Below the pieces are notes generated by a model, which was given only the letters and a program-made list of their open reading frames with translations, did no database searches and was not told the DNA's origin. A program made the position numbers and the translations under genes. A stretch of 22,011 nt of DNA from a virus (lineage: Duplodnaviria > Heunggongvirae > Uroviricota > Caudoviricetes), in the IMG/VR virus record IMGVR_UViG_2869947659_000001. The stretch is one strand, 5' to 3'. This document shows positions 1 to 21,751 of the stretch, piece by piece. Within the stretch, counting starts at the first letter, position 1; each line of letters starts with the position of its first letter.

Positions 1-1125
1 ATGTTAACCGATATTCCATACCTGCCGGAAAATTTAAGGAACGGTTATTTTGACATAAATCAGATAAGTCATATCCCGGAAAGCATTCTTAATCTGAGGA
101 ATGAATGTTCAATAGATATTAGTGATAACCCATTGTCATCCCATGCTCTGCAATCCCTGCAAAGATTAACCTCTTCGCCGGACTACCACGGCCCGCAGAT
201 TTACTTCTCCATGAGTGACGGACAACAGAATACACTCCATCGCCCCCTGGCTGATGCCGTGACAGCATGGTTCCCGGAAAACAAACAATCTGATGTATCA
301 CAGATATGGCATGCTTTTGAACATGAAGAGCACGCCAACACCTTTTCCGCGTTCCTTGACCGCCTTTCCGATACCGTCTCTGCACGCAATACCTCCGGAT
401 TCCGTGAACAGGTCGCTGCATGGCTGGAAAAACTCAGTGCCTCTGCGGAGCTTCGACAGCAGTCTTTCGCTGTTGCTGCTGATGCCACTGAGAGCTGTGA
501 GGACCGTGTCGCGCTCACATGGAACAATCTCCGGAAAACCCTCCTGGTCCATCAGGCATCAGAAGGCCTTTTCGATAATGATACCGGCGCTCTGCTCTCC
601 CTGGGCAGGGAAATGTTCCGCCTCGAAATTCTGGAGGACATTGCCCGGGATAAAGTCAGAACTCTCCATTTTGTGGATGAGATAGAAGTCTACCTGGCCT
701 TCCAGACCATGCTCGCAGAGAAACTTCAGCTCTCCACTGCCGTGAAGGAAATGCGTTTCTATGGCGTGTCGGGAGTGACAGCAAATGACCTCCGCACTGC
801 CGAAGCCATGGTCAGAAGCCGTGAAGAGAATGAATTTAAGGACTGGTTCTCCCTCTGGGGACCATGGCATGCTGTACTGAAGCGTACGGAAGCTGACCGC
901 TGGGCGCTGGCAGAAGAGCAGAAATATGAGATGCTGGAGAATGAGTACCCTCAGAGGGTCGCTGACCGGCTGAAAGCATCAGGTCTGAGCGGTGATGCGG
1001 ATGCGGAGAGGGAAGCCGGTGCACAGGTGATGCGTGAGACTGAACAGCAGATTTACCGTCAGCTGACTGACGAGGTACTGGCCCTGCGATTGTCTGAAAA
1101 CGGCTCACAACTGCACCATTCATAA
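1..1125 (+). CDS. ipaH: IpaH-family type III secreted E3 ubiquitin ligase, C-terminal part (last LRR repeats plus NEL domain); 5' end lies outside the window
   Basis: Frame open from base 1 to TAA at 1123-1125. Translation carries the NEL catalytic motif ...ATESCEDRVALTWNNL... (Cys codon TGT at 496-498) and other conserved NEL segments (FLDRLSDT, GREMFRLEILEDIARDKVRTL, DEIEVYLAFQ, EMRFYGVSGVT). The ATG at 1-3 is probably an internal Met codon. Which ipaH paralogue cannot be decided from the conserved C-terminus alone. Confidence 0.85.
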   Translation: MLTDIPYLPENLRNGYFDINQISHIPESILNLRNECSIDISDNPLSSHALQSLQRLTSSPDYHGPQIYFSMSDGQQNTLHRPLADAVTAWFPENKQSDVSQIWHAFEHEEHANTFSAFLDRLSDTVSARNTSGFREQVAAWLEKLSASAELRQQSFAVAADATESCEDRVALTWNNLRKTLLVHQASEGLFDNDTGALLSLGREMFRLEILEDIARDKVRTLHFVDEIEVYLAFQTMLAEKLQLSTAVKEMRFYGVSGVTANDLRTAEAMVRSREENEFKDWFSLWGPWHAVLKRTEADRWALAEEQKYEMLENEYPQRVADRLKASGLSGDADAEREAGAQVMRETEQQIYRQLTDEVLALRLSENGSQLHHS

Positions 1126-1879: not shown

Positions 1880-3295
1880 TCACGATGTGCGAATAAAAAG
1901 CCCGGGCATTGCGCCAGAGACATGTGCATCCGGCCCCCCGGACAGGGCGCAATATGACCCCGGTAATGAATGCTCTGAACATCCCGTAATGAAAAATTGT
2001 GGGGATGCTATATACGTTCCGGTGGGAGTACTGGGCACTGAAATCCCCACCGGTCCCAGTCGTGAGCCTCTGTATGACTGCCCCCTGACAAGTCTGATGA
2101 CTTTATCACCGTCAGCTTCTCCCTGGTACGCAGCAATAATCAGCCCGCCAATGTCAGGGTCTCCCCATCTGTTGCGGACAGAGCTCGCCACGATTCTGTA
2201 AATAATATCTTCTGTGGTTATATTTATTTTCACCCAGTCAGTCAGTCTGGATATGGGCCAGTAGCAGTAGCGGGTGTGATAAATGGGGCCGTTAATGCCG
2301 TAAAAAGTAAGGGATTTGGCTCTGTACCGCGGTTCTGTTGTCTCAGGGCGTGCATCAGTCCACCGGATGCTGAGCACCCCTTCAAACCGTGTGTCGGGTA
2401 TGATGATGTCGTAGGGGCCAGCAACGGAATATTCACCTGGCAGCGCATTCCTTACCCAGGCCAGGAAATCACTCTTAGTGTCAAAACGGATAACATCTTC
2501 AGGCAGAAAAGCACACCCAAAGCCGAATGCGCCGGGTATCGCCAGACGGCCTTTTGTCCGGTCGTAAATGTCGCTCTGTGCTTCCATCGTGGCCGCACTT
2601 TTCAGCCCCAGATTATCCCGGGACTTCTGTTGTGCCTTTTCGCCTGCTGCTGCGATTTCTGACAGATGGTTAGCCATTTTCAGAGTGCCGGTCAGCGCAG
2701 CATCAATGTCATTTTTGGCCTGTTCTGCTGCGCGGGCATAACCTGCGGCATCCTGTGCGCTCTGTCCGGCTGCGGCTGCATTTGCTCCTGTGCTTGTCAC
2801 ATCTTCCGCAGTGGCCTTTCTGTCCTCAGCTGTGACGGTTGCATCCTGTCGGGCTTTCTCCGCAAAACGTTGTGCATCATCACGGGCCGTTGCGGCTGCC
2901 GCCACATCCTGCGCCGTCTGCTGTGCGTTTCCGGCTGCAGCCCCGGCACTCTGCTGCGCCTGCGCCACCATTTCCTCAAAGCGCTTCATCACCTCCGGAC
3001 GTAAATCACCATCCTTTGGTGCATTCAGAAACGCGTTCAGTGTCCCCGGTGCATCAGTCGGTGCCACATCAATATCCCCGACACGGGTTGGCTGCCAGCC
3101 GTTACAGTGAAGCGCAACCTCGTAATACCCCGGCTCAGCCTCAATCACATAAGCACCGTTATTGTCCGTCACGCAAGTGGCAACAACGTGTGCCACAACG
3201 GTCGGACTGGTTCTTCTGGCCCGCAGTTCAATCGCACAATTTACGACAGGTTTACCCGCCCCATCTTTCAGTACACCTGAAATCTTTACTGCCAT
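1880..3295 (-). CDS. stf: Side tail fibre protein Stf (471 aa)
   Basis: N-terminus MAVKISGVLKDGAGKPV... matches the lambda Stf N-terminus, followed by an Ala/Gln-rich central region. ATG at 3293-3295 is preceded by GGGGTGAAT. The track ORF begins at an upstream ATG (3337) that lies inside the lom terminator hairpin and adds 14 non-homologous residues. Confidence 0.85.
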   Translation of the reverse strand: MAVKISGVLKDGAGKPVVNCAIELRARRTSPTVVAHVVATCVTDNNGAYVIEAEPGYYEVALHCNGWQPTRVGDIDVAPTDAPGTLNAFLNAPKDGDLRPEVMKRFEEMVAQAQQSAGAAAGNAQQTAQDVAAAATARDDAQRFAEKARQDATVTAEDRKATAEDVTSTGANAAAAGQSAQDAAGYARAAEQAKNDIDAALTGTLKMANHLSEIAAAGEKAQQKSRDNLGLKSAATMEAQSDIYDRTKGRLAIPGAFGFGCAFLPEDVIRFDTKSDFLAWVRNALPGEYSVAGPYDIIIPDTRFEGVLSIRWTDARPETTEPRYRAKSLTFYGINGPIYHTRYCYWPISRLTDWVKINITTEDIIYRIVASSVRNRWGDPDIGGLIIAAYQGEADGDKVIRLVRGQSYRGSRLGPVGISVPSTPTGTYIASPQFFITGCSEHSLPGSYCALSGGPDAHVSGAMPGLFIRTS

Positions 3296-3306
3296 ATTCA
3301 CCCCAC

Positions 3307-3332
3307 AAAAAGCCCGCCTGAACCAGCGGGCT
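3307..3332 (-). terminator. Intrinsic terminator downstream of lom
   Basis: Stem AGCCCGC (3311-3317) / GCGGGCT (3326-3332) with an 8-nt loop, followed on the minus strand by a U-tract (A-run 3307-3311 on plus). Sits between the lom stop (3359) and the stf start (3295). Confidence 0.55.
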
Positions 3333-3358
3333 GTCATAACACTGTGTTACCTGGCTAA

Positions 3359-3958
3359 TCAGAACTTATAACCGACACCCACGATGAAACCGTCAGTGCG
3401 CCAGTCGCCACTGCCGGAACCTTCATAAGCAAGGTCAATGGCCACGGATTCGGTCGGGTTAAACTGCACGCCAGCCCCCCACGCCAGAGACGTGTTGCTG
3501 TGGCGGTTGTCATCACTCCCGGTCAGCACATCGTGCGTTTTCCCCTTGTTGTCAGTTACGCGGAGATAATCCCCGGAGAAGGTCGACACACGGCTGTAAG
3601 CCACGCCCGCCATCGCATACGCGCTGAACCATTCATTCACGCGCACAGACGGCCCCGCCATCACGCTGAACCAGCGGTTACGCACGGAATCCTCATGCCA
3701 GCGGGTATCGCTGTAATGCGTTTTTTGCTCATCTTCAGCGTTGGCATAGCTGAATGACGTCACCAGCCCCAACGTGTCCGTAAACTCATAACGGTATTTC
3801 ACGTTAATGCCCTTCAGGTCATCGCTGCCTGGCATATCAGTATGGGGCTGAAGATACCCGGCGCTCAGCGTGGACTGATGTTCAGACGCCCATGCAGGCG
3901 CACCGGATACAGCCAGACAGATGGCTGCGGACAAAATGGCTGCACAAACTTTACGCAT
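3359..3958 (-). CDS. lom: Lom outer-membrane protein (Ail/PagC family), lambda-type lysogenic-conversion moron
   Basis: 199-aa ORF with signal peptide MRKVCAAILSAAICLAVSGAPAWA and near-identity over long stretches to recalled lambda Lom (SEHQSTLSAGYL..., WHEDSVRNRWFSVMAGPSVRVNEWFSAYAMAGVAYSRVSTFSGDYLRVTDNKGKTHDVLTGSDD..., DGFIVGVGYKF). SD GAGAGG 5 nt before the ATG at 3956-3958. Confidence 0.95.
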   Translation of the reverse strand: MRKVCAAILSAAICLAVSGAPAWASEHQSTLSAGYLQPHTDMPGSDDLKGINVKYRYEFTDTLGLVTSFSYANAEDEQKTHYSDTRWHEDSVRNRWFSVMAGPSVRVNEWFSAYAMAGVAYSRVSTFSGDYLRVTDNKGKTHDVLTGSDDNRHSNTSLAWGAGVQFNPTESVAIDLAYEGSGSGDWRTDGFIVGVGYKF

Positions 3959-4025: not shown

Positions 4026-7000
4026 TCAGCTAATCGTGATGCCTGCAGTGGCTTTCTTCATCACAACAACCAGCAAATCGCTGATACTTGCTGTGGGATA
4101 CCAGCCATTTACCAGCCATGCCGATACAGAAAACTCCAGCGTCATGTGACCGTGACCGGCAGGCATATCAATAACACCCGTATATATCAGCGTATTATCC
4201 AGGGTCGTTCGGTTATAAATTTCAGCACCGTTTTTCTTCACTATCAGGCTGCATGACGAATAAATATTGTTATTCTTCCGCTCATGTTTAGCACCGCGAA
4301 ACGCCACCGCGGGAATAACAATTTGCCGATCAAACGGCTGATCGTCATAAACCCTGACGGTAATGGTCCCTGATGGCCACCTCTCCGGTGCCCGGGAGTC
4401 CCGTGGGAAAGGTTTGCCCACTGTTTTAACGAGATCGCCTTCAATCTGGTTCGCGGACAATTTTCCCAGAACCCGACAGTTCTTATTAATCGTGACGTTG
4501 TTGAGCGTCCCGGAGTTCGCGTTCACGTTACCGCTGATATCGGCATTTTTCGCCGTCAGCCGTCCGCCAGGTGTCAGGGAAAATGCCGGAGGATTACCGC
4601 CGCTGGTAATGGTCGGAGCCGTCAGGCGTTTCAGGAACACGTCGTTCATGAATATCTGATCGCCCTGACCAACAAACATCGGCTTTGTGTTGCCATTCGC
4701 AGGATTAATCATCGCAATCCTGTCTGCCGCCAGCAGCACCTGACTCTGCATTCCTGCTGGCGTATTCTCAATACCGGCACCGATACCCGCAATATAAAGG
4801 CGTCCGTCCTTCATCTGTTGCAGCTTCACAGCCCACATGCTGTTCAGGTTATTATTTGTATCAACCTGAACTTTCTGTATCTGCTGGATTGCAGCACTCT
4901 GATTTTCCAGTTTTTTATTGACGGTTTGCGTGATTTCATTGCTGACATTCGTAATGGACGTCCTGATTTCAGTCAGGTCCGGCGCAAGCTGACCGTTATC
5001 AATCTGCGTCCACAACTCCTTGCCGAGATGCGTTTTATTGATCAACCCTTTATAAAAACTCAGATAACCTTCCGCATCATCGCTCGCCCGACCGACGGCC
5101 TCCACAAATGCCGATTTGCCAACGGTGTTCACACTGCGAACGTAAAAATAATAATCATGGCCCGGCCTGATATTGATACTGGCGGCTATCCAGTACAGCG
5201 CCGTGCCAAGATAGCGGGCGCTGGTTTCAACCTGCCTGATATCCGCAATCCGCTTTTCCGAAAACCAGAACTCAAACTGCACCGTCGGGTCGTATACAGC
5301 CAGTTTCGGGACCGCCGTTATCTGAAAATACCCCGGTATCAGTTCAATAGTGACAGGCGCTGCCGGTGCCGCAATCCGGAACGATACCGACGCCGGATCG
5401 CCCTGCTGCCCCCGGGCATTTACCGCCCGGACTGTCAGACTGTAATTCCCCAGCGCCAGCTGCCTGAAGCGGTATGTGGTTTCCGTCGTCCTGGCTGTGC
5501 TGACCAGCCGCTCACTGCCGTCGTCCGCTGCCACGGTCAGGCGAAGCAGGAAGCTCACACCCTTCACCACCTTCGGCGTGTCCCATCGCGCCAGCACCTG
5601 ATATTCCCCGCTGTCTGCGGTGACTTCGGCGGTCAGATGCTGCACCGCTGGCGGCGTGACACCATTCACCGTGCCGCGCCGGTCACCGTCAAAGTGTGCC
5701 CCGTTATCCACGATGGCCTCTTTTTCCGGCACATGCTGCACGGCGGTGATGGCATACGTGCCGTCGTCGTTCTCACGGATACTCACGCAGCGGAACAGGC
5801 GCTGGCGCAGCGTCGGCAGCTTCAGCCCCCACACGCTGTATTCTGCAACGCCGTCAGGAACCCGGCTCACTTTCACCTTCACGCCGTCGGTGACGGACTG
5901 AACCTCCACGCTGACCGGATTGCCATTTCCGTCAACCAGGCTTATCAGCGTGGTACCGGAGGACGGCAGCGTGATTTCACGGTCGAGCGTCAGCGTCCGG
6001 GTCTGGCTGTTCACCGCCAGTACGCGACCACCGGTGCTGATACCGGCATAATCATCATCGCAGATTTCAATGACATCACCCGGTACATGGCGAAGCCCTT
6101 CTGCGCCGACGCTGAAGTCCACGGTCTGCGTTTCCAGCAGTTCCGTTTTAATCAGCCACAGCCCGGCGCGGTGCGCCTGTCCCCGGCTGGTACAGCCAAA
6201 GGCATCCATCTTCGTGACGTTACGACCGTAACGGAGAATGGCCTGCGTGTCCTCCACAAGCTCTGTCGCCGTCTCATGACCGTTGTCCGGATCAATCCAG
6301 TTCACCTCAACGACATTATGGCGGTCCTTCAGGGCGCTGAAGCTGTAGCGGAACGGCGCGCCATCATCCGGCATCACCACATTACTGCGGTTATAGGTCC
6401 ACACTTTATCCGACGGTCGGTCCTGCACGAACGTCAGCGTCTGCCCGTTCCATACCGGCATACAGCGCATCGCCGAGCAGAAATCACTGAGAACATCCCA
6501 CGCCTTACGCTGTGTGGTCAGGTAAGCGTTACAGGTGATGCGCGGCTCCGTGCCGCCAAATCCGTCCGGCACTGACTGGTCGCAGTACTGGCCGATGACA
6601 TACAGCGCCCATTTGTCCACATCTGCCGCACCAAGACGTTTCCCCATGCCGTAGCGCGGATGAGTGAGCATGTCCCACCGACACCAGGCCATGTTGTTGC
6701 TGTATGCTGGCTTAAGCGTTCCGTCCCAGATACCGCTGTATTGCCGCGTCTGCGGGTTATAGTTCGACGGCACCTGCAGAATGCGCCCGCGAAGATGATA
6801 ATTGCGACTCACCTGCTGGTTACCGAACTGCTCTGAATCCACCTGCACGCCGACCAGCGCCGTGTTCGGGTAGCACTGTTTCACATCGATGATTTCGGTG
6901 TACGACGACCAGAGCGTTTTGTTCTGCAGCTGGTCTGTGGTGCTGTCCGGTGTCATCCTGCGCATCCGGATATTAAACGGGCGCGGCGGCAGGTTACCCA

Positions 7001-7505
7001 CCACCACCGAGGCCAGATACTGCGAAGTGGTTTTGCCCTTAATGGTGATGTCTTTTTCCGTCACCCAGCCACCGTTACGCTGTATCTGAACCAGCAGGCG
7101 GACTTCCGACGGATTCCGGTCCCCCTTTGAGGTGTTTTCCACCAGTGCCTGCACACCGAAGGTCAGGCGCAGACGATCAATGTTTGCCGACGTGATGGTC
7201 CGGGTGATCGGCGTGTCGTATTTCACTTCCGTACCCAGCACAGTCTCTGAGCCGGAAGATTCAAACCCCTCCGGCGGTGTCTGCTCCTGCTCGCCGGCGC
7301 GGAACACCACCGTAACACCGGAAAAGTTTGTCTTCCCCTCGCTGTCCAGGACCGGCGTACCGTTCAGCAGCACGCTTTTTAATCCATCCACCGGACCGTC
7401 AACCGGCCCTTCGCTGATGGCATCAATCACACTCAGCAACTGCGTGGATTTCAGGTTGTCCTTCGCTTCGCGCGGGGTATGCCCCTTACTGCTGCCTTTA
7501 CCCAT
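4026..7505 (-). CDS. J: Tail tip / host specificity protein J (1159 aa)
   Basis: N-terminus [34 protein letters not shown]... and most of the length are collinear with recalled lambda J; the C-terminal receptor-binding part diverges. ATG at 7503-7505 with SD TGAGGA. Confidence 0.95.
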
Positions 7506-9551: not shown

Positions 9552-9880
9552 CAGTTCACCACCTGTTCAAAATCGGCCGTTACAGTCACCCATAACGCCC
9601 CCACGCTTGCCGACCATTTACGACAAACCACCCTGATCGGTTTCCAGTCATAAGGTGGTGTCCACTGAAATGCGCGGACGCCACCGTGCCGTTCCAGAAA
9701 GGCTTTTAAAGGTGGGTGTTCACCTTTACGAACACGTATCGTCACGCTGTAAGTCGACAGCAGATTATTCAGTCCCGCCGGGCGACGCTGTTCATAACCA
9801 TCACCCAGCTTCACTGCCACCACTTTTGGCTCTGATACCACATTCATATCCGGGCGCACCTTCCAGCGAAACGTCTCCAT
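9551..9880 (-). CDS. M: Minor tail protein M (109 aa)
   Basis: METFRWKVRPDMNVVSEPKVVAVKLGDGYEQRRPAGLNNLL... matches recalled lambda gpM in length and sequence. Confidence 0.95.
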   Translation of the reverse strand: METFRWKVRPDMNVVSEPKVVAVKLGDGYEQRRPAGLNNLLSTYSVTIRVRKGEHPPLKAFLERHGGVRAFQWTPPYDWKPIRVVCRKWSASVGALWVTVTADFEQVVN

Positions 9881-11034
9881 TACCGGTATGCTCCACTTAA
9901 CCGGCCACCATCACGGGCCTGCTGTTGCATAAAGTCCGCGGCCGCTTTTTTCCCGAGGTCATAAACCACCTTCAGTGCTGCCGGACCTATCTGCCCGTTC
10001 GTGCCGTCGTTATTGATCCCGATGTTGTACTGCGGGGCAAACATCACCATGCCTGAACCACCAGTATCCGCCACAACCCCCAGCTTACCATCAGCACCGC
10101 GACGCAGTGGCAGAATGGCTTCAGGTCCCGCTTCCCCCATCACACCCGCGCCTTTTGCAAAAGCAAAAAACGTCGGACGGTTAACCACCGTGCCACTGTA
10201 GCGACTCAAATCAGCAGACTGGTAAACACCGCCATCAGCATTAGTCGTGAAGCCGAATAAAGAGCCGACGCCCTTTACCGCCTGCATCATGGCCATCTGT
10301 GCCATAATTCTGGCCATATCTGACAACAGGGAAGAGGTGAAGGATTTAAAATTCAGCTTACCGGTGGTACAGAATGTCGCCAGTGCATTACCGGCACTGC
10401 TGAATGCCACTGTAAACATCTGTTCTGCCGTTCCCACCGCATTATCCGCATCCGCCGTAAAATTCTGAAACGCCCGCATGGCACCGTTTTTCCAGTCGCC
10501 CTGCGCCACTTCCAGTTCCTGCCAGTAGCGTTTGTTTTCATTCAGTTGTCGCTTCAGGCTCCCCTTCAGCACCTCCTCAGCCCTCCGGTAGTCCTCCGTC
10601 CCGTAAGTGCCTTTCTGGCGACTGTCATTCTCAAGCTGTTGCAACTGTTGCCGGTATTCCTGCCGGATGCGCAACTGTGCCTGGTAGCGCTGCCGCTGCT
10701 TATCCCCCATACCTGCAGTGGCAATATCCAGATTGTGCTGCTCACGCAGTGCACGTTCTTTGTCTGCCAGCTGGCTGGTCAGCTGAACCGTTTTTTTTCT
10801 CAGGTCGTTAAGCGCTGTCTGTTTCTGCAGCTCCTGCTGTTTCACATCCAGCAGCGTCAGCGCCTGAATCAGCTCATTCTTACGGGCCAGCACACTCTTT
10901 TCATCTGCCGTCAGCTTTTTCCCGTCCAGGTCGCTGATGCGCTGCTGCAGGGCCAGAAGCTGTTTATGCGCTTCAGTCATCCTTTCAGTGGCAATGCCTG
11001 CTGACTGTCTGGCAGCAGCAATCTGCCCTTCCAC
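9880..11034 (-). pseudogene. H: Tape measure protein H, C-terminal fragment (384 codons), separated from its 5' part by IS600::IS629
   Basis: C-terminus ...NNDGTNGQIGPAALKVVYDLGKKAAADFMQQQARDGGRLSGAYR matches the recalled lambda H C-terminus. The frame is open up to the IS600 end at 11035; the track 'start' at 11034 is an internal GTG Val codon. Confidence 0.85.
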
Positions 11035-11241
11035 TGAGGTAGCCTGAGTTTAACGGACACTCCTTCCTGAAATAGAATGGCATCAGAAGGAGCTAATAAT
11101 GAGCAGAAAAAACCAACGTTACTCTAAAGAGTTCAAAGCCGAAGCTGTCAGAACGGTTCTTGAAAATCAACTTTCGATCAGTGAAGGTGAACCGCCCCGG
11201 GAATCCTGGAGACTAAACTCCCTGAGAAAGAGGTAAACAGG

Positions 11242-11559
11242 ATGACTAAAAATACTCGTTTTTCCCCCGAAGTCCGTCAGAGGGCGATTCGTATGGTTCT
11301 GGAAAGTCAGGGCGAATATGACTCACAGTGGGCGGCAATTTGTTCCATTGCCCCAAAGATTGGCTGTACACCGGAGACTCTGCGTGTCTGGGTACGCCAG
11401 CATGAGCGGGATACCGGAGGCGGTGATGGCGGGCTCACCACCGCTGAACGTCAGCGTCTGAAAGAGCTGGAACGTGAAAATCGTGAACTGCGCCGCAGTA
11501 ACGATATCCTTCGCCAGGCTTCCGCTTATTTTGCGAAGGCGGAGTTCGACCGCCAGTGA
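11242..11559 (+). CDS. IS629 OrfA (105 aa, HTH/leucine-zipper transposase N-terminal protein)
   Basis: [105 protein letters not shown] matches recalled IS629 OrfA. Confidence 0.9.
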
Positions 11560-12446
11560 TGCCACTGCTGGATAAGCTGCGTAAGCTGTACGGGGTCGGA
11601 CCGGTATGCAGTGAACTACATATTGCCCCGTCAACGTATTACCACTGTCAGCAACAGCGACATCATCCTGATAAACGCAGTGCCCGTGCGCAGCGCGATG
11701 ACTGGCTGAAGAAAGAGATACTGCGCGTATACGATGGGAATCATCAGGTATACGGTGTGCGTAAAGTCTGGCGTCAGTTGTTACGGGAAGGCATCAGAGT
11801 GGCCAGATGCACTGTGGCACGTCTCATGGCGGTTATGGGACTTGCCGGTGTTCTCCGGGGTAAAAAGGTCCGTACGACCATCAGCCGGAAAACCGTTGCC
11901 GCAGGCGACCGCGTAAACCGTCAGTTCGTGGCAGAACGACCTGACCAGCTGTGGGTGGCTGATTTTACTTACGTCAGCACATGGCAGGGCTTCGTCTATG
12001 TGGCGTTCATTATTGATGTGTTTGCCGGATACATCGTGGGGTGGCGGGTCTCATCGTCCATGGAAACGACATTCGTGCTGGATGCTCTGGAGCAGGCGTT
12101 ATGGGCCCGTCGACCGTCCGGCACGGTCCATCACAGTGATAAAGGTTCTCAGTATGTATCGCTGGCCTACACACAGCGGCTTAAGGAAGCCGGATTACTG
12201 GCATCAACAGGAAGTACAGGCGACTCGTATGACAACGCGATGGCGGAGAGCATCAATGGTCTTTACAAAGCGGAGGTAATACACCGTAAGAGCTGGAAAA
12301 ACCGTGCAGAAGTGGAACTGGCCACACTCACGTGGGTGGACTGGTATAATAATCGACGATTGCTGGAAAGGCAGGGCCACATCCCTCCGGCAGAAGCAGA
12401 AAAAGCTTATTATGCTTCCATCGGAAACGATGATCTGGCAGCCTGA
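11556..12446 (+). CDS. IS629 OrfB (296 aa, DDE transposase catalytic domain), in the -1 frame relative to OrfA
   Basis: DDE motif context ([25 protein letters not shown]). ATGA overlap with the orfA stop. Confidence 0.9.
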
Positions 12447-12659
12447 GTTCACAGATAAAACACTCTCCAGGAAACTCGGGGCGGTTCAAGGGTTCAAGGC
12501 GCTTCCCGATTATCCCTTCCTGAAGGCACTTTAGGACAATGGGTTACCGCCGCCAGAAAAGGGCTCGGTACTCCTGGTTCCCGCACGGTGGCTGAACTGG
12601 AATCTGAAATTCTGCAACTGCGTAAGGCGTTAAATGAAGCTCGCCTTGAGCGAGATATA

Positions 12660-12668
12660 TTAAAAAAA
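12660..12668 (+). promoter_or_regulatory. IS600 programmed -1 ribosomal frameshift window (TTA AAA AAA G; A7 run) linking orfA to orfB
   Basis: orfA codons TTA AAA AAA GCA. A -1 slip on the A-run enters the orfB frame (...KKSNSVFCTGVAEKYALIEQWRQQFPIEAMCQVF...). IS3-family elements use A6G/A7 windows for OrfAB fusion. Confidence 0.6.
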
Positions 12669-12748
12669 GCAACAGCGTATTTTGCACAGGAGTCGCTGAA
12701 AAATACGCGTTAATCGAACAATGGCGACAACAATTTCCCATTGAAGCG

Positions 12749-13567
12749 ATGTGTCAGGTATTTGGTGTATCCAGGAGCGGTTATTACAACTGGGTACAGC
12801 ATGAACCCTCAGACAGAAAACAAAGTGATGAGCGGCTAAAACTGGAGATTAAGGTGGCACATATCCGCACTCGCGAAACATATGGAACCCGGCGGCTCCA
12901 GACGGAGCTGGCAGAGAATGGCATCATCGTTGGTCGTGACCGACTGGCACGTCTTCGTAAGGAGCTAAGGCTACGCTGTAAGCAGAAACGCAAGTTCAGA
13001 GCGACTACGAACCCGAACCACAATCTGCCAGTTGCGCCAAATCTGCTGAACCAGACGTTCGCTCCTACAGCACCAAATCAGGTCTGGGTGGCGGACCTGA
13101 CGTATGTTGCCACACAGGAGGGATGGTTGTACCTCGCTGGCATCAAAGATGTTTATACGTGCGAAATTGTCGGCTACGCCATGGGAGAGCGCATGACAAA
13201 AGAGCTGACAGGTAAAGCCCTGTTTATGGCGCTCAGGAGCCAGCGCCCACCTGCCGGGCTAATCCACCACTCTGATCGAGGTTCACAGTACTGCGCATAC
13301 GATTACCGGGTCATACAGGAGCAGTCTGGTCTGAAAACATCAATGTCGCGTAAAGGTCACTGTTACGACAACGCTCCGATGGAAAGCTTCTGGGGAACGC
13401 TGAAAAATGAGAGCCTGAGCCACTATCGTTTTAATAACCGGGATGAAGCCATCTCAGTAATACGGGAATACATTGAGATTTTCTACAATCGTCAGCGTCG
13501 TCACTCTCGTCTGGGGAATATCTCCCCGGCAGCCTTCAGGGAAAAATATCATCAGATGGCTGCTTAA
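12749..13567 (+). CDS. IS600 OrfB (copy A), DDE transposase catalytic domain (272 aa from first Met; frame open upstream to the frameshift window)
   Basis: Identical protein to the copy at 16367-17185. DDE context WVADLTYV, HHSDRGSQY, YDNAPMES. Confidence 0.85.
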   Translation: MCQVFGVSRSGYYNWVQHEPSDRKQSDERLKLEIKVAHIRTRETYGTRRLQTELAENGIIVGRDRLARLRKELRLRCKQKRKFRATTNPNHNLPVAPNLLNQTFAPTAPNQVWVADLTYVATQEGWLYLAGIKDVYTCEIVGYAMGERMTKELTGKALFMALRSQRPPAGLIHHSDRGSQYCAYDYRVIQEQSGLKTSMSRKGHCYDNAPMESFWGTLKNESLSHYRFNNRDEAISVIREYIEIFYNRQRRHSRLGNISPAAFREKYHQMAA

Positions 13568-13610
13568 AAAAAGAACAAATGGTAGTGTCCGCTATTGCCA
13601 GTACACCTCA

Positions 13611-15374
13611 GACAGCCTGGTCGGCGTACTGCATGGCATTAATACGCGCAATTTCCCGCTGATGTCGTGCAGCTTCCGTTTCATTCATCCGGTTCAGCGC
13701 GGCATTTTCAGCATTCCGGCGTTTCTGTTGCTCCTGGTAATTCCGTTCTGCCTGCGCTTTTGCATCCTGCAAATCCTTCCGGCGTTTTTTCTCCTGAAGA
13801 TCGTTAAGACGCTGCTGATCGTACTCCACCTGTGTGGAGGCGTTTGTCCACGGATATTTTTTCGCGCGCTGAATTTTTTCCTGTAACGCATCAATCTGCG
13901 CATCCAGCGAGTCTTCACGACCAATATTCATGGCCGCATCCCAGAACTGCTTCCACCAGTCAGACAAGGTTTGCAGCGTACTACCCAGCGCATTGAGATT
14001 ATTATCAATATCAGATGTGCGTTTACCGGTTTCCTCTGCCAGCGCAGACATGGCGATCCGGGCCGCATCACTGGACCGCCCCTGCTCCCCAAGGACGCGT
14101 ATCTGCTCAAGCTGAGTGGCAGTCAAAAAATGCAGCGCATTGTCCAGCGCCTTCGCGGCATTTACAGGATCATCCTTCAGCCGCTTAAACTGATTTATGG
14201 TATCGCTGACCGACTGGCCAACCGATCGCTCCATCTGTGCGGCAGCTTTCGCCACCATACCAATATCGTTTCCATGAAATGCCCCACTGCCCACCACCTG
14301 TGCCAGCGCACCGGCTGCCGCATGTTGCGTGATACCATTCCCGGATATGGCCCGGCTGAGTTTCCACAACTGCCCGACAGTGACACCGGCATAATGTCCC
14401 GTCAGCGCCAGCTGATGGTTAAATTCCTCGCCCTCCTTCCGGCCGTCATGCCAGGCTTTACCCAGACCCAGGACCGCCGCGACAAGTCCGCCAATAACGC
14501 CGCCAGTCATCATGCCTTTCGGCGACATCAGTGCGCCTGTCCATCCGGCACGGTTAGCCAGCGTTATCCCGGATCCCCTCAGCGCACCAAAATTGCCGCG
14601 CGCCATCTGACTGATTAACACCCCCAGCTCCCGCCGGGCTGCCGCACTTTTCAGCCCCAGCGAATGTGTGGCTTTTCCTGCCCGCTCCATTTTGCGGATA
14701 TACACTTCTGCAGCACTGCTTACCCCCAGCTGAGCCGCCCTGGCGCGAAGCAACTCAGAAGACGACAGATTCTGGCGGGTTGCCTGCTCTTTAAGCTGGC
14801 GGATAAACGCCGCTTTCTGCCGGGTGGCCTGTTCCTCTGCCTGCGTCAGGGCACGGGTTTTCGCCGTGATCTCCGAAATCAGCGCCAGATAATCCTGCTG
14901 ACCAACCCCGCCACTGTTTCTGGCCTGTCGGATCTGCTGCTGAATACGCTGTAATTCCTGAAGCCCCGCACCGGCCTGTTTCACACTGTCAATCTGGCGA
15001 TAAAAGGCGGCAGCCGCTTTATCCTGCGCCTCCGCCAGTGCCCTGGCCTGCGCCTGTTCCTCGCGCATTTTCTGATTCAGGGCATCCACGCGCAGACGGG
15101 TTTGTTCCACCTCACGGGCCATGCGTTCATGAGCCCGTGCATTCTTCTCCACCGTCTGCGCATGGGCTGATGCTGCTGTTGCAGCCGAAGAAGCCGCATG
15201 CATTGTCTGCCGGGCCGCCTGAGTCTGACGCTCCATAAAACGCTGCATACGGGCAGAAGACCGTTCTGCATCACCGGCTGCACCATTCAGAAGGTTTTTG
15301 ATACGGGGAATTTCATTTTTAAACTCTGCCGCATCAATCCCCAAATCAATGACCAAGTTGGCTATCTGGTCCAT
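13611..15374 (-). pseudogene. H: Tape measure protein H, N-terminal fragment (588 codons)
   Basis: ATG at 15372-15374 with SD GGAGGTG. N-terminus MDQIANLVIDLGIDAAEFKNEIPRIKNLL... resembles the recalled lambda H N-terminus. The frame runs into the IS600 end and stops at its terminal TGA (13608-13610). Joining to 9880-11034 after removing the IS and one flanking triplet gives an in-frame H of about 971 aa. Confidence 0.85.
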
Positions 15375-15689
15375 AACGCACACCTCCGGAAATACCTTCC
15401 CCAAGATGCATCAGTTCTTCGTCCGTTCGCTCCGGTATCCCGTTCTCTTCCGGTAAAAGGCTGAAATCAGCCACCGCAGCATCACTGCTGCCGGACACCA
15501 TTCTCACGATCAATGCCTTCAGCGAGGCAAACTGCGCATCCATCCACACATCACTGAAGCTCTGCATCCGGAAATAATCGCCCCCTCACCAAGCTCAGTG
15601 GCCGACATTTCCGACAGCATCCGCCGCCAGTCTGCCCGCCGGAACTCCCGGGCAAGCCGCATGACAAACTGCATTTCCCGCGTCAGGAC
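15346..15689 (-). pseudogene. T: T segment of the G-T tail assembly chaperone, apparently frame-broken
   Basis: Candidate shift site CCG GAA AAG at the end of G (15689-15697). The -1 frame is open from there to TGA at 15519-15521. A different frame is open from 15585 to stop 15346-15348, ending 29 nt inside H as T does relative to H in lambda. One extra C in the C5 run 15581-15585 would join them into a continuous T domain of about 114 codons. Confidence 0.4.
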
Positions 15690-16069
15690 TTTTCCGGCGT
15701 CAGCGCCTCATGATCATCATCCCCGGCATTCTCAATGGTCCCCATACCGCTCAGCGACAGAACCCTCTCCGCCCCCGCGCCCAGCGCATCATACGACCAT
15801 GTTGTCATAATGGATGCGCAAAGCGTCTCAACATCCTGAGACTGCTCAGCATTCCACAGTGAGCGGGAAACCAGCCAGGCATTGATATCCATTCCCATAC
15901 GCAGAAAAGCAATCTGTCGTTCAGCCTCCGGCAGTTCTCCCTCCTGTGCATCAAACTTTGCCGTTCGCTGCTGAACAAACGTCAGATATTCAATTCTCTG
16001 CAGCCCGGACAGCTCACTGAGCACCACGGACTGTTTTTCATAATTAAACGTATCCTGTTTCAGAAACAT
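15683..16069 (-). CDS. G: Tail assembly chaperone G (128 aa from ATG 16067-16069)
   Basis: MFLKQDTFNYEKQSVVLSELSGLQRIEYLTFVQQ... matches recalled lambda gpG (MFLKTESFEHNGVTVTLSELSALQRIEHLA...). SD GGAGAA upstream. The track ORF starts at an upstream TTG. Confidence 0.9.
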   Translation of the reverse strand: MFLKQDTFNYEKQSVVLSELSGLQRIEYLTFVQQRTAKFDAQEGELPEAERQIAFLRMGMDINAWLVSRSLWNAEQSQDVETLCASIMTTWSYDALGAGAERVLSLSGMGTIENAGDDDHEALTPEKS

Positions 16070-16127: not shown

Positions 16128-16320
16128 TTATGGTGCGCTGACGGTCACCGCAGCCACTGCCACAAACTCTCCGTCAGAGGTCATGCCCACGATGCTGACA
16201 CTGCCCTGCTTCACGCCTTTCACCGTGGCCACAAGCCCGCTCAGGGTCACCGAAGCAGTCTGAGGATCTGACGAATGCACACTGATCGCTTTGTCACTGG
16301 CCCCGTCAGGTTTTACTGTA
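16128..16320 (-). pseudogene. V: Major tail protein V, C-terminal fragment (Ig-like domain)
   Basis: ...FTVKPDGASDKAISVHSSDPQTASVTLSGLVATVKGVKQGSVSIVGMTSDGEFVAVAAVTVSAP resembles the recalled lambda gpV C-terminal domain. Separated from the N-terminal part by IS600. Confidence 0.85.
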
Positions 16321-16366
16321 AAGTGAGGTGTACTGGCAATAGCGGACACTACCATTTGTTCTTTTT

Positions 16367-17185
16367 TTAAGCAGCCATCTGATGATATTTTTCCCTGAAG
16401 GCTGCCGGGGAGATATTCCCCAGACGAGAGTGACGACGCTGACGATTGTAGAAAATCTCAATGTATTCCCGTATTACTGAGATGGCTTCATCCCGGTTAT
16501 TAAAACGATAGTGGCTCAGGCTCTCATTTTTCAGCGTTCCCCAGAAGCTTTCCATCGGAGCGTTGTCGTAACAGTGACCTTTACGCGACATTGATGTTTT
16601 CAGACCAGACTGCTCCTGTATGACCCGGTAATCGTATGCGCAGTACTGTGAACCTCGATCAGAGTGGTGGATTAGCCCGGCAGGTGGGCGCTGGCTCCTG
16701 AGCGCCATAAACAGGGCTTTACCTGTCAGCTCTTTTGTCATGCGCTCTCCCATGGCGTAGCCGACAATTTCGCACGTATAAACATCTTTGATGCCAGCGA
16801 GGTACAACCATCCCTCCTGTGTGGCAACATACGTCAGGTCCGCCACCCAGACCTGATTTGGTGCTGTAGGAGCGAACGTCTGGTTCAGCAGATTTGGCGC
16901 AACTGGCAGATTGTGGTTCGGGTTCGTAGTCGCTCTGAACTTGCGTTTCTGCTTACAGCGTAGCCTTAGCTCCTTACGAAGACGTGCCAGTCGGTCACGA
17001 CCAACGATGATGCCATTCTCTGCCAGCTCCGTCTGGAGCCGCCGGGTTCCATATGTTTCGCGAGTGCGGATATGTGCCACCTTAATCTCCAGTTTTAGCC
17101 GCTCATCACTTTGTTTTCTGTCTGAGGGTTCATGCTGTACCCAGTTGTAATAACCGCTCCTGGATACACCAAATACCTGACACAT
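16367..17185 (-). CDS. IS600 OrfB (copy B), DDE transposase catalytic domain (272 aa)
   Basis: Identical to the copy A OrfB. In this copy the orfB frame is +1, not -1, relative to orfA. Confidence 0.85.
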   Translation of the reverse strand: MCQVFGVSRSGYYNWVQHEPSDRKQSDERLKLEIKVAHIRTRETYGTRRLQTELAENGIIVGRDRLARLRKELRLRCKQKRKFRATTNPNHNLPVAPNLLNQTFAPTAPNQVWVADLTYVATQEGWLYLAGIKDVYTCEIVGYAMGERMTKELTGKALFMALRSQRPPAGLIHHSDRGSQYCAYDYRVIQEQSGLKTSMSRKGHCYDNAPMESFWGTLKNESLSHYRFNNRDEAISVIREYIEIFYNRQRRHSRLGNISPAAFREKYHQMAA

Positions 17186-17234
17186 CGCTTCAATGGGAAA
17201 TTGTTGTCGCCATTGTTCGATTAACGCGTATTTT

Positions 17235-17522
17235 TCAGCGACTCCTGTGCAAAATACGCTGTTGCTTTTTTAATATATCTCGCTCAAGGCGAGCTTCATT
17301 TAACGCCTTACGCAGTTGCAGAATTTCAGATTCCAGTTCAGCCACCGTGCGGGAACCAGGAGTACCGAGCCCTTTTCTGGCGGCGGTAACCCATTGTCCT
17401 AAAGTGCCTTCAGGAAGGGATAATCGGGAAGCGCCTTCACTGATCGAAAGTTGATTTTCAAGAACCGTTCTGACAGCTTCGGCTTTGAACTCTTTAGAGT
17501 AACGTTGGTTTTTTCTGCTCAT
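17235..17522 (-). CDS. IS600 OrfA variant (copy B), 95 aa with altered C-terminus
   Basis: MSRKNQRYSKEFKAEAVRTVLENQLSISEGASRLSLPEGTLGQWV...LERDILKKQQRILHRSR. After the A-run it diverges from the copy A reading (…KKATAYFAQESLKNTR) because the run is A6 rather than A7. Confidence 0.8.
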   Translation of the reverse strand: MSRKNQRYSKEFKAEAVRTVLENQLSISEGASRLSLPEGTLGQWVTAARKGLGTPGSRTVAELESEILQLRKALNEARLERDILKKQQRILHRSR

Positions 17523-17586
17523 TATTAGCTCCTTCTGATGCCATTCTATTTCAGGAAGGAGTGTCCGTTAAACTCAGGCTACCTCA

Positions 17587-18134
17587 AAGGTCAGTGTGGT
17601 GGTTGCTCCCGCTTTGACACTGACAGATGCCGGTGCCACCGTCAGTCCGGTAACACCCACGGTTTCAGCGCCCTCCTCTGCCAGATACGGACGCCCCACA
17701 CCGCTGATTTTTACAGTACGGGTCATCACCTCTTTTGAGGTAATGGTTTTACCCAGTGAACTCAGCCAGCCACGGAAAACATCAACCGTACCGTTGGGGT
17801 ATTTGATACGAAACGCGCAGACTTCACCGGAATCGAACAACTGAACCAGTTTTTTCTGCCCGCTGTCACCCGGACGCCAGGCCAGCGTCGCCAAAGTATC
17901 ACCGACGGATTTCTGCCCCTGGGTTGTCGTTTTCCAGTCTGCATCTTCATCATCGAGATAAGTGTCATCTTCTGCATCAGCGGTCATTTCGCCAAGTTGC
18001 AGATCCTTCACCATCGCAAGACGCAGCCAGTCAGTGTCCGACAAAGGGTTCGCAAACGCATCGCCCTTGCCGGTGTACATCCAGAACGTCGTTCCCGCAC
18101 CTTTCGTCTTTGCCAGTGGATTTGGTGTGGTCAT
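17587..18134 (-). pseudogene. V: Major tail protein V, N-terminal fragment
   Basis: ATG 18132-18134 with [46 protein letters not shown]... matches the recalled lambda gpV N-terminus. The frame runs 12 nt into IS600 to TGA 17574-17576. The track ORF starts at an upstream GTG. Confidence 0.85.
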
Positions 18135-19361: not shown

Positions 19362-19781
19362 ATGGAACAGAAAGCATTATCTGCAGAACCCCGCAGATCA
19401 TTTTCAAATGAGTTTAAACTTCAAATGGTTAAACTGGCTTCACAACCAGGAGCCTCTGTTGCCCGTATTGCCCGGGAACACGATATCAATGATAACCTGC
19501 TGTTCAAATGGCTCAGGCTCTGGCAGAACGAAGGGCGCATATCGCGGCGTCTTCCGGTAACAACCTCTTCTGACACTGGCGTTGAATTATTACCTGTGGA
19601 GATAACGCCGGATGAGCCGAAAGAACCTGTGGCTGCTCTTACTCCGTCTTTATCTACTCAGACTACAGTTAGTGCCAGCTCCTGCAAGGTGGAGTTCCGT
19701 CACGGTAACATGACGCTGGAAAATCCTTCACCAGAGCTGCTCACAGTGTTGATCCGTGAACTGACCGGGAGGGGACGATGA
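19362..19781 (+). CDS. IS66-family Orf1 (TnpA-like accessory protein, 139 aa)
   Basis: First of three co-oriented ORFs inside the inverted repeats. N-terminal HTH-like region (FSNEFKLQMVKLASQPGASVARIAREHDINDNLLFKWL). Confidence 0.85.
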   Translation: MEQKALSAEPRRSFSNEFKLQMVKLASQPGASVARIAREHDINDNLLFKWLRLWQNEGRISRRLPVTTSSDTGVELLPVEITPDEPKEPVAALTPSLSTQTTVSASSCKVEFRHGNMTLENPSPELLTVLIRELTGRGR

Positions 19782-20128
19782 TCTCACTCCCGTCAGGCAC
19801 CCGCATCTGGCTCGTTGCTGGGATAACCGATATGCGTAAGTCTTTCAACGGGCTGGGTGAACAGGTACAGCATGTGCTGAATGATAATCCCTTCTCCGGT
19901 CACCTGTTCATCTTCCGTGGCCGACGGGGTGACATGATTAAAATCCTGTGGGCTGATGCTGATGGTCTGTGCCTGTTCACCAGACGCCTGGAGGAAGGCC
20001 AGTTTATCTGGCCTGCTGTGCGTGACGGCAAGGTATCCATTACCCGCTCGCAACTGGCAATGCACCTCGATAAGCTGGACTGGCGTCAGCCAAAAACATC
20101 CCGCCTTAATGCACTGACAATGTTGTAA
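19778..20128 (+). CDS. IS66-family Orf2 (TnpB-like, 116 aa)
   Basis: ATGA overlap with orf1. Conserved IS66 Orf2 pattern (IWLVAGITDMRKSFNGL...HLFIFRGRRGDMIKILWADADGLCLF). Confidence 0.85.
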   Translation: MISLPSGTRIWLVAGITDMRKSFNGLGEQVQHVLNDNPFSGHLFIFRGRRGDMIKILWADADGLCLFTRRLEEGQFIWPAVRDGKVSITRSQLAMHLDKLDWRQPKTSRLNALTML

Positions 20129-20158
20129 AAATGTCATGGCCGGATTATAAAAACGGCC

Positions 20159-21751
20159 ATGAATCAAAAATACCTCATTCGCATTGCAGAACTGGAATGC
20201 CAGCTCCGTCAGAAAGACCAGCAACTGAGTCTGGTTGAAGAGACGGAGGCCTTCCTGCGCTCTGCACTGGCCCGCGCCGAAGAAAAGATCGAAGAAGATG
20301 AACGGGAAATAGAACATCTGCGGGCTCAGATAGAAAAACTGCGCCGGATGCTGTTCGGTACCCGTTCTGAAAAACTGCGTCGTGAAGTTGAACAGGCTGA
20401 GGCCCTGCTGAAACAACGCGAACAGGACAGTGATCGTTACAGTGGGCGGGAAGACGATCCGCAGGTTCCCCGCCAGTTGCGACAGTCTCGTCATCGTCGC
20501 CCGTTACCGGAGCATCTGCCCCGCGAAATAAATCGCCTGGAGCCAGAAGAAAGCTGTTGCCCGGAGTGTGGCGGTGAGCTGGATTATCTGGGGGAAGTCA
20601 GCGCAGAACAACTGGAACTGGTGAGCAGCGCTCTGAAAGTGATCCGCACAGAACGGGTAAAAAAAGCCTGTACAAAATGTGACTGCATCGTTGAAGCACC
20701 GGCACTATCCCGTCCGATAGAGCGTGGTATCGCGGGCCCGGGGTTACTTGCCCGCGTGTTAACGGGAAAATACTGCGAACACCTGCCACTGTATCGTCAG
20801 AGTGAAATTTTTGCCCGTCAGGGTGTCGAACTGAGCCGTGCATTACTCTCCAACTGGGTTGACGCGTGCTGCCAGTTAATGACGCCGCTGAATGATGCTC
20901 TGTACCGTTATGTAATGAACAGCCGCAAAGTTCACACTGATGACACACCAGTAAAAGTGCTGGCACCGGGCAGGAAGAAGGCGAAAACAGGATATATCTG
21001 GACGTATGTCCGGGATGACAGGAATGCCGGTTCGCCAGAGCCTCCGGCGGTCTGGTTCGCCTACTCACCGGACCATCAGGGTAAACATCCGGAGCAGCAC
21101 CTTAGTCCCTTCCGGGGTATCCTGCAGGCAGATGCGTTTAATGGTTACGATCGGCTGTTCAGTGCCGAACGAGAAGGCGGCGCGTTGACGGAAGCAGGAT
21201 GCTGGGCTCATGCGCGGCGCAAAGTCCACGATGTATATATCAGTACCAAAAGCGCGACAGCGGAAGAAGCCCTGAAACTAATCGGTGAGCTGTACGCCAT
21301 CGAGCACGAAATACGCGGGTTGCCGGTGTCTGAACGCCTGGCGGTCAGGCAAATGCAGAGTAAACCGCTACTGACTTCCCTGTATAAGCTGATGCAGGAG
21401 AAAGAACACACGTTATCGAAAAAATGCCGTCTGAGAGATGCGTTCCGGTATATCAGGAAGCACTGGGTTGCGTTGTGCAACTTCAGTGATGATGGTCTGG
21501 CTGAGGCGGATAATAATGCCGCGGAAAGAGCGCTTCGTGCAGTCTGTCTCGGAAAGAAAAACTTTATGTTCTTCGGCAGCGATCACGGTGGAGAGCGTGG
21601 TGCGCTACTGTACGGGCTGATCGGCACCTGCCGACTGAACGGTATCGATCCGGAAGCGTATCTGCGCTATATCCTGAGCGTACTGCCGGAATGGCCTTCC
21701 AACCGTGTTGACGAACTCCTGCTATGGAACGTAGCACTCACCAATAAATAA
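20159..21751 (+). CDS. IS66-family transposase Orf3 (TnpC, 530 aa)
   Basis: N-terminal coiled-coil / leucine-zipper region, Cys cluster CPECGGEL...CTKCDC (zinc-finger-like) and C-terminal DDE-type region. Stop TAA 21749-21751 lies just inside the right terminal repeat. Confidence 0.9.
   Translation: MNQKYLIRIAELECQLRQKDQQLSLVEETEAFLRSALARAEEKIEEDEREIEHLRAQIEKLRRMLFGTRSEKLRREVEQAEALLKQREQDSDRYSGREDDPQVPRQLRQSRHRRPLPEHLPREINRLEPEESCCPECGGELDYLGEVSAEQLELVSSALKVIRTERVKKACTKCDCIVEAPALSRPIERGIAGPGLLARVLTGKYCEHLPLYRQSEIFARQGVELSRALLSNWVDACCQLMTPLNDALYRYVMNSRKVHTDDTPVKVLAPGRKKAKTGYIWTYVRDDRNAGSPEPPAVWFAYSPDHQGKHPEQHLSPFRGILQADAFNGYDRLFSAEREGGALTEAGCWAHARRKVHDVYISTKSATAEEALKLIGELYAIEHEIRGLPVSERLAVRQMQSKPLLTSLYKLMQEKEHTLSKKCRLRDAFRYIRKHWVALCNFSDDGLAEADNNAAERALRAVCLGKKNFMFFGSDHGGERGALLYGLIGTCRLNGIDPEAYLRYILSVLPEWPSNRVDELLLWNVALTNK

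Follow-up and report, generated by a model that had tools for sequence, protein, structure and literature searches.

A one-base deletion in T has very probably made a pseudogene of the G-T tail chaperone cassette in an IS-riddled lambdoid prophage remnant

The window, as we call the whole stretch of 22,011 nucleotides analysed here (virus record IMGVR_UViG_2869947659_000001), carries on its minus strand a series of tail genes in the order V-G-T-H. V is present as two fragments (17586-18134 and 16128-16323), G lies at 15683-16069, T spans 15346-15695 and H starts at 15374. G itself (16069..15683, minus strand) encodes an intact tail assembly chaperone of 128 amino acids that matches Pfam PF06894 (Phage_TAC_2) with an E-value of 2.7e-40, and exactly the same protein sequence is encoded by many NCBI genomes. 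Its 3' end reads ACG CCG GAA AAG TCC TGA, with the stop codon TGA at 15685..15683. The putative -1 shift heptamer GGAAAAG (15695..15689, minus strand) stands in the register G_GAA_AAG at the last-but-one codon pair of the gene.

The -1 frame relative to G is open from 15707, runs across the G stop and ends at TGA 15521..15519. The N-terminal part of the T domain is found in this frame (15586..15692, minus strand); it reads KVLTREMQFVMRLAREFRRADWRRMLSEMSATELGE and has the same sequence as in intact relatives. The C-terminal 79 codons of T (15346..15585, minus strand; Pfam PF06223, E-value 1.2e-10) are placed one more frame back, in a third frame that opens at 15585, straight after TGA 15588..15586, and closes at TGA 15348..15346. 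A run of five C residues occupies 15581-15585 on the plus strand. On recheck, every coordinate given in the initial annotation was correct.

Several properties of a lambda-type cassette can be recognized here: two overlapping frames between V and H, an upstream ORF of the gpG type, a downstream -1 frame that is open over the G stop, and a slippery site within the short overlap. Two others are lacking. The heptamer is not of the canonical X_XXY_YYZ form, G_GAA_AAG entailing a second-position mismatch for the P-site tRNA, and a continuous Phage_tail_T domain in a single -1 frame is obtained only after restoring one base. In the T of 114 amino acids repaired in this way, Phage_tail_T matches residues 29-104 (profile positions 1-73) and the break falls at residue 35. 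The third-frame piece alone covers profile positions 11-73, and the -1-frame piece on its own has zero Pfam matches. Since the match crosses the break and only the third-frame piece scores, the homology to gpT is divided between two frames, contrary to the alternative, considered at the outset, that it would reside in one existing frame. The proposed repair is also borne out by alignment, as the product of a -1 shift with one base restored matches lambda G-T over the full length.

Similarities to lambda G/G-T comprise the V-G-T-H order, a Phage_TAC_2 domain in G and a Phage_tail_T domain in T, the location of T in the -1 frame of G, and the overlap of T with H. Furthermore, the shift sites share one alignment column, in which lambda has ...SAGK|VFDGELSF... 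and the window ...TPEK|VLTREMQF..., both with a Lys|Val junction. The lambda genes reportedly use a programmed -1 frameshift, which is said to have been described by Levin, Hendrix and Casjens in 1993 and by Xu, Hendrix and Duda in 2004, 2013 and 2014. Differences concern the heptamer (G_GGA_AAG in lambda against G_GAA_AAG in the window), the sequence identity (35% for G and about 38% for T) and the break in the window's T, which is due to a 1-nt deletion. The third-frame stop lies 29 nt beyond the H start codon ATG at 15374. The end of T inside H was thus correctly placed by the initial annotation. The T/H overlap measures 8 nt in lambda, and 29 nt is the overlap of the mEp460/cdtI group.

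Much closer relatives are available. Phages mEp460, cdtI, Tritos, Ayreon and HannyBb, together with prophages in 1847 of 5426 complete E. coli genomes, show 96-99.7% DNA identity to the window over G-T. The mEp460/cdtI-type phages have the same shift region, and in T they differ from the window only by the deletion and a single C-to-T change. They differ in reading GAG TGG GGC and in encoding a continuous T of 114 amino acids, whereas the T of TGG is lost in the window, in Shigella boydii 602068 and in the IMG/VR contig L024. A layout with T in two frames, which if seen in intact phages would have spoken against a lesion, is therefore absent from the intact relatives. Three of these were aligned base by base: the E. 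coli prophage of FDAARGOS_943 (99.7% identical), phage mEp460 and E. coli 219 (both 96-97%). In this alignment the deletion is the sole indel in 761 nt. Between the end of G and the beginning of H only two differences are seen, namely the deletion and a T in the window for C within the T/H overlap.

The alignment places the deletion, which changes GAG-TGG-GGC into GAG-GGG-GC, at 15581..15585 (minus strand). The three intact relatives read GGTGAG-T-GGGGCG, with Glu-Trp-Gly encoded by GAG-TGG-GGC, and the window reads GGTGAGGGGGCG. The lost base is the T of the TGG Trp codon, corresponding to a plus-strand A between 15584 and 15585. At this site the deleted form is GAGGGGGCG, and the undeleted form would read GAGTGGGG at 15581-15586; the string GAGCTTGGTGAGGGGGCGATTATTTCC marks the deletion. 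Loss of this T from the Trp codon created the G5/C5 run, which consequently is not a C6 run contracted to C5. The initial annotation had suggested that one additional C in the C5 run would join both frames: such an insertion does restore the frame, but what was actually lost is the T, and the run arose from the deletion. The Trp at the break is conserved in the T domains of lambda, Gifsy-2, mEp213, Providencia phage and Stx phages.

A separate observation concerns the uneven distribution of differences. Over the segment from the shift site to the H start (15346-15700, minus strand) the window, the E. coli prophage, mEp460 and E. coli 219 are the same at every base bar the deletion, and the adjacent G differs at about 25 positions among the same four sequences. 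This could mean that T evolves at an unusually low rate or, alternatively, that the G/T junction is a mosaic boundary. Annotation practice differs as well: in intact E. coli relatives RefSeq/PGAP lists T as a free-standing CDS of 109 amino acids from an internal ATG (3427-3756 in locus L001, 1928-2257 in locus L003) and does not mark it as a -1 extension of G, whereas the N15 and Gifsy-2 records do mark a frameshift product.

To what extent the deletion affects the product becomes clear when a -1 shift at G_GAA_AAG is simulated. This gives a GT protein of 241 amino acids in 90 of 93 relatives and one of 183 amino acids in the window, contig L024 and S. boydii 602068. The initial claim that a single -1 shift cannot make G-T from the sequence as written is thereby confirmed. 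The window's product ends in ...ELGEGAIISGCRASVMCGWMRSLPR*, the final 22 residues of which are out of frame; this tail (15519..15580, minus strand) reads AIISGCRASVMCGWMRSLPR and is followed by TGA 15521..15519. The invariant Trp codon (GAG TGG GGC) that lost its T is situated 105 nt past the shift site. In the window, shifted ribosomes would accordingly continue out of frame past ...ATELGE, add 22 wrong residues and stop at 15521..15519, leaving the protein without the C-terminal 79 residues of T and hence most of its Phage_tail_T domain. Because one base is lost in T, a single -1 shift would yield this dead-end product of 183 amino acids instead of the 241-aa GT. In lambda, the T domain recruits the major tail protein (PMC5009743). 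Given that an indel disrupts the frame and that intact orthologues are nearly identical in all other respects, we consider it very probable that the G-T cassette of this mEp460/cdtI-type lambdoid prophage has turned into a pseudogene.

Whether the break is carried by the genome or was introduced by sequencing can be judged from its recurrence. A 71-nt query centred on the site found 2000 matching places in 1836 complete E. coli records (from the 5426 genomes), none of them identical, and all best E. coli matches show the one-base gap. When GTDB species-representative genomes were scanned for an exact match to the deleted sequence, no hit was obtained, but this carries no information, as a close relative of the strain is probably not included there. 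A look-up of the exact G protein in public assemblies gave ten loci, one of which has the deletion: S. boydii 602068 (clade 3; L013, CP049285.1), a genome assembled from 118x Illumina plus PacBio data (PMC7545283). This locus is 99.8-100% identical to the window, has the same IS66-family element next to Z, and contains intact V and H. The deletion is also present in contig L024, whose V is free of IS600; of the 1838 positions aligned between this contig and the window (C-terminal part of V, G, T and the start of H), 6 are different.

A homopolymer error in sequencing or assembly, with an intact T in the real genome, would be compatible with the position of the break in a 5-base run and with its absence from all 1836 E. 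coli records. It is nevertheless very improbable, and we reject it. The relatives read G-T-GGGG, so that the missing T adjoins the run and is no G inside it, which makes this no miscall of run length; moreover, the same deletion has been reproduced in the hybrid Illumina/PacBio genome of S. boydii and in L024. The presence of the deletion in these two independent assemblies of related strains indicates an inherited mutation rather than a read error. As judged from the comparison of assemblies, then, a lineage of the Shigella boydii type acquired the deletion as a genuine mutation and passed it on, an error in the window's own assembly being excluded only through the two others. Since V is intact in S. 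boydii 602068 and L024, and H in the former, the deletion is older than the IS600 insertions of the window. It can be used as a lineage marker in common with S. boydii 602068.

The heptamer calls for a different interpretation. The initial annotation by implication treated its non-canonical form as part of the defect, which would mean that G_GAA_AAG is a decayed G_GGA_AAG and that G-T expression had already been lost at the shift site. It is indeed one base off the site of lambda and slips poorly in vitro. However, three IMG/VR scans, seeded with the G proteins of the window, Gifsy-2 and mEp213, returned 189 loci from three G clades, and G_GAA_AAG is present in register inside the overlap in every one (189/189), even where G proteins are just 35-38% identical to the Gifsy-2 query. 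Around it, 34 distinct flanking contexts are seen in these loci and the reference phages, so the flanking codons vary, but the synonymous codons GAG and AAA are never used at the heptamer. This suggests that selection acts on the nucleotides themselves.

Isolated phages point in the same direction. The sequence CCGGAAAAGTCCTGA recurs unchanged in 17 phage records, among them mEp460, cdtI, Tritos, Ayreon and HannyBb, and in more than 1800 E. coli prophages; the 30 E. coli prophage matches that were listed all have the annotation gpG, T and tape measure. The shift region is identical as well in the three relatives aligned base by base. Thus intact relatives have the very heptamer that was thought to be defective. 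More distant lineages, whose T is 41-52% identical to that of the window, retain it as well: Gifsy-2 (52%) has CCG GAA AAG TCC TGA, mEp213 (44%) and Enterobacter phage MStein-2023a (Ravinvirus; 43%) both have GCG GAA AAG CCC, and Providencia phage PSTCR8lys (41%) has CTG GAA AAG TAG. Other sites are found in lambda and some Stx phages (G_GGA_AAG; T identity 31.5-38%) and in other Stx phages (A_AAA_AAG; 36-41%). Within the 8 codons that form the possible shift region, G_GAA_AAG is the sole motif common to all lineages. The heptamer of the Providencia phage is directly followed by the G stop codon.

Phage N15 provides an annotated example. Its genes 14/15 (NC_001901) agree with the window in the heptamer, its register and its position close to where the G homologue ends, and the heptamer is also in common with its relatives mEp213 and Enterobacter phage MStein. 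N15 differs in belonging to another clade (the T of its close relative mEp213 is about 44% identical to that of the window), in the flanks of the heptamer (GCG before and CCC after), in a G stop 5 codons further downstream and in an intact T. The RefSeq record of N15 annotates GGAAAAG at 10027-10033 as "slippery sequence for -1 translational frameshift". A literature search for GGAAAAG as a tail-gene shift site returned no phage paper. Taken together, occurrence in isolated phages, invariance across three clades and the N15 annotation make a decayed heptamer hardly credible. On comparative grounds GGAAAAG is the known and normal G-T shift site of this phage group and not damage, and at the end of a gpG homologue it should be read as such.

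Regarding the mechanism, a minority of ribosomes in intact relatives would slip by -1 on G_GAA_AAG. The A-site tRNA-Lys could then re-pair cognately from AAG to AAA, and the P-site tRNA-Glu, moving off GAA, would face GGA. Slipped ribosomes would produce the 241-aa G-T fusion ending 29 nt inside H. A -1 shift on A_AAG with a 5' codon that cannot re-pair is established for G_CGA_AAG in IS1222 and A_CGA_AAG in B. subtilis cdd, where likewise only the A-site tRNA-Lys re-pairs cognately (PMC5009743). The window differs from these sites in its 5' codon, GAA, with tRNA-Glu facing GGA, and in that no downstream structure was found by folding: the 99 nt past the heptamer gave a z-score of -1.1, which is not significant, against -1.55 for the equivalent region of lambda.

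Published efficiencies are less encouraging. Among tetramers in E. coli, A_AA.G is the one most prone to shifting. A pseudoknot can raise it to as much as 5.6%, but without a stimulator A_AAG remains barely over background in vivo, and the known tetramer sites need a pseudoknot or a comparable stimulator to attain useful levels (PMC4066793). When G GAA AAG served as an intentionally weak slippery sequence in reconstituted E. coli translation, the product was mainly 0-frame, and the sequence was termed unfavourable for slippage (PMC6924986). Located 9-10 nt upstream of the heptamer is an SD-like GAGG(A) in both the mEp460/cdtI clade (window 15705-15712, minus strand) and the Gifsy-2 clade, and it is not seen in the N15/mEp213 clade; this and the directly following G stop codon of the Providencia phage are candidate clade-specific stimulators.

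For lambda the GT:G ratio is roughly 1:30. One could speculate that phages with the poorly slippery yet conserved G_GAA_AAG (N15-like, mEp213-like, mEp460/cdtI-like, Gifsy-2-like and Providencia phages) either depend on an unrecognised stimulator, for which GAGG is a candidate, or make do with a ratio far below that of lambda, although we regard this as rather unlikely. That a poor slipper in vitro should be the conserved G-T shift site of many viable phages is a loose end of a general nature and not specific to the window, which itself adds nothing to the question of slippage, its T being broken.

Two ways in which some T function might survive the deletion were weighed. The first is a second -1 slip on the new G_GGG_G run, a "savior" frameshift that would restore the T frame and give a full-length GT with Trp replaced by Gly. 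The tRNA-Gly on GGG 15584..15582 could re-pair perfectly at GGG 15585..15583, the target frame opens exactly at 15585, and the product would read ...ELGEGGDYF.... Against this, G_GG.G is not a genuine E. coli shift motif, its signal having been put down to SD-like internal initiation (PMC4066793). Both slips would moreover be rare events whose frequencies multiply to give the yield, the Trp to be replaced is invariant in all homologues compared, and with V and H disrupted by IS elements no tail is possible anyway. We therefore consider a rescue of this kind highly unlikely and reject it, mainly for the absence of a genuine motif and the replacement of the invariant Trp.

The second is that the stranded C-terminal part of T is made on its own from ATG 15567 and keeps some function. 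An ATG-initiated ORF of 73 amino acids (15346-15567) does exist and contains most of the Phage_tail_T domain. However, no Shine-Dalgarno sequence precedes this ATG (the upstream sequence is GATTATTTCCGG) and no gene is called at that place in S. boydii 602068; independent initiation was rejected on these two grounds. In lambda, T reportedly acts only as a portion of the G-T fusion, by which H and V are bridged; this is attributed to the work of Levin, Hendrix and Casjens in 1993 and of Xu and colleagues in 2013-2014, as cited in PMC5009743. We give this possibility next to no credence, and loss of the G-T fusion by the one-base deletion is retained as the preferred reading.

The remainder of the tail module is interrupted by insertion sequences. 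V is split into an N-terminal (17586-18134) and a C-terminal part (16128-16323) by a 1262-bp element (16324..17585, minus strand), named IS600 after plasmid annotation. It is missing from the near-identical S. boydii 602068 locus and from L024, which makes it a recent, strain-specific insertion. In H (tape measure), an N-terminal fragment (13611..15374, minus strand; Pfam TMP_2, and BLAST against the intact S. boydii locus) is separated from a C-terminal one (9880..11034, minus strand; Pfam Tape_meas_lam_C and TMP_4, 100% identical to S. boydii 602068) by a second IS600 copy (11036..13610, plus strand), again named from plasmid annotation. Nested inside this copy is an IS3-family element of 1308 bp (11188-12495) with ORFs of 105 and 296 amino acids, and at the junction 123 bp of H are gone relative to S. 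boydii 602068. Immediately upstream of Z is the IS66-family element (19362-21751, plus strand) with ORFs of 139, 116 and 530 amino acids; as it is common to the S. boydii locus (L013 1-975), it predates the IS600 insertions. The head genes that precede Z in intact relatives are not seen inside the window.

With IS elements in V and H no tail could be built, whatever the state of G-T. Other essential genes of the element have thus been inactivated besides T. As far as can be judged from its gene content, the prophage is a non-functional, IS-riddled lambdoid remnant of a Shigella-type chromosome. In a prophage that is decaying, such a pseudogene is nothing out of the ordinary: this kind of feature is already known, and the finding matters little by itself. 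For annotation, the cassette would best be described as a G-T pseudogene in a defective, ipaH-carrying prophage remnant with no working chaperone pair.

The ORF behind this last designation is cut by the start of the window (1-1125, plus strand) and has a C-terminal NEL E3-ligase domain (Pfam PF14496, E-value 4.7e-77), which is typical of IpaH effectors. It adjoins the genes for the tail fibre (1880-3337), Lom (3359-3958) and J (4026-7505), an arrangement that fits a Shigella chromosomal prophage remnant. This effector cargo gene looks intact while the tail module decays.
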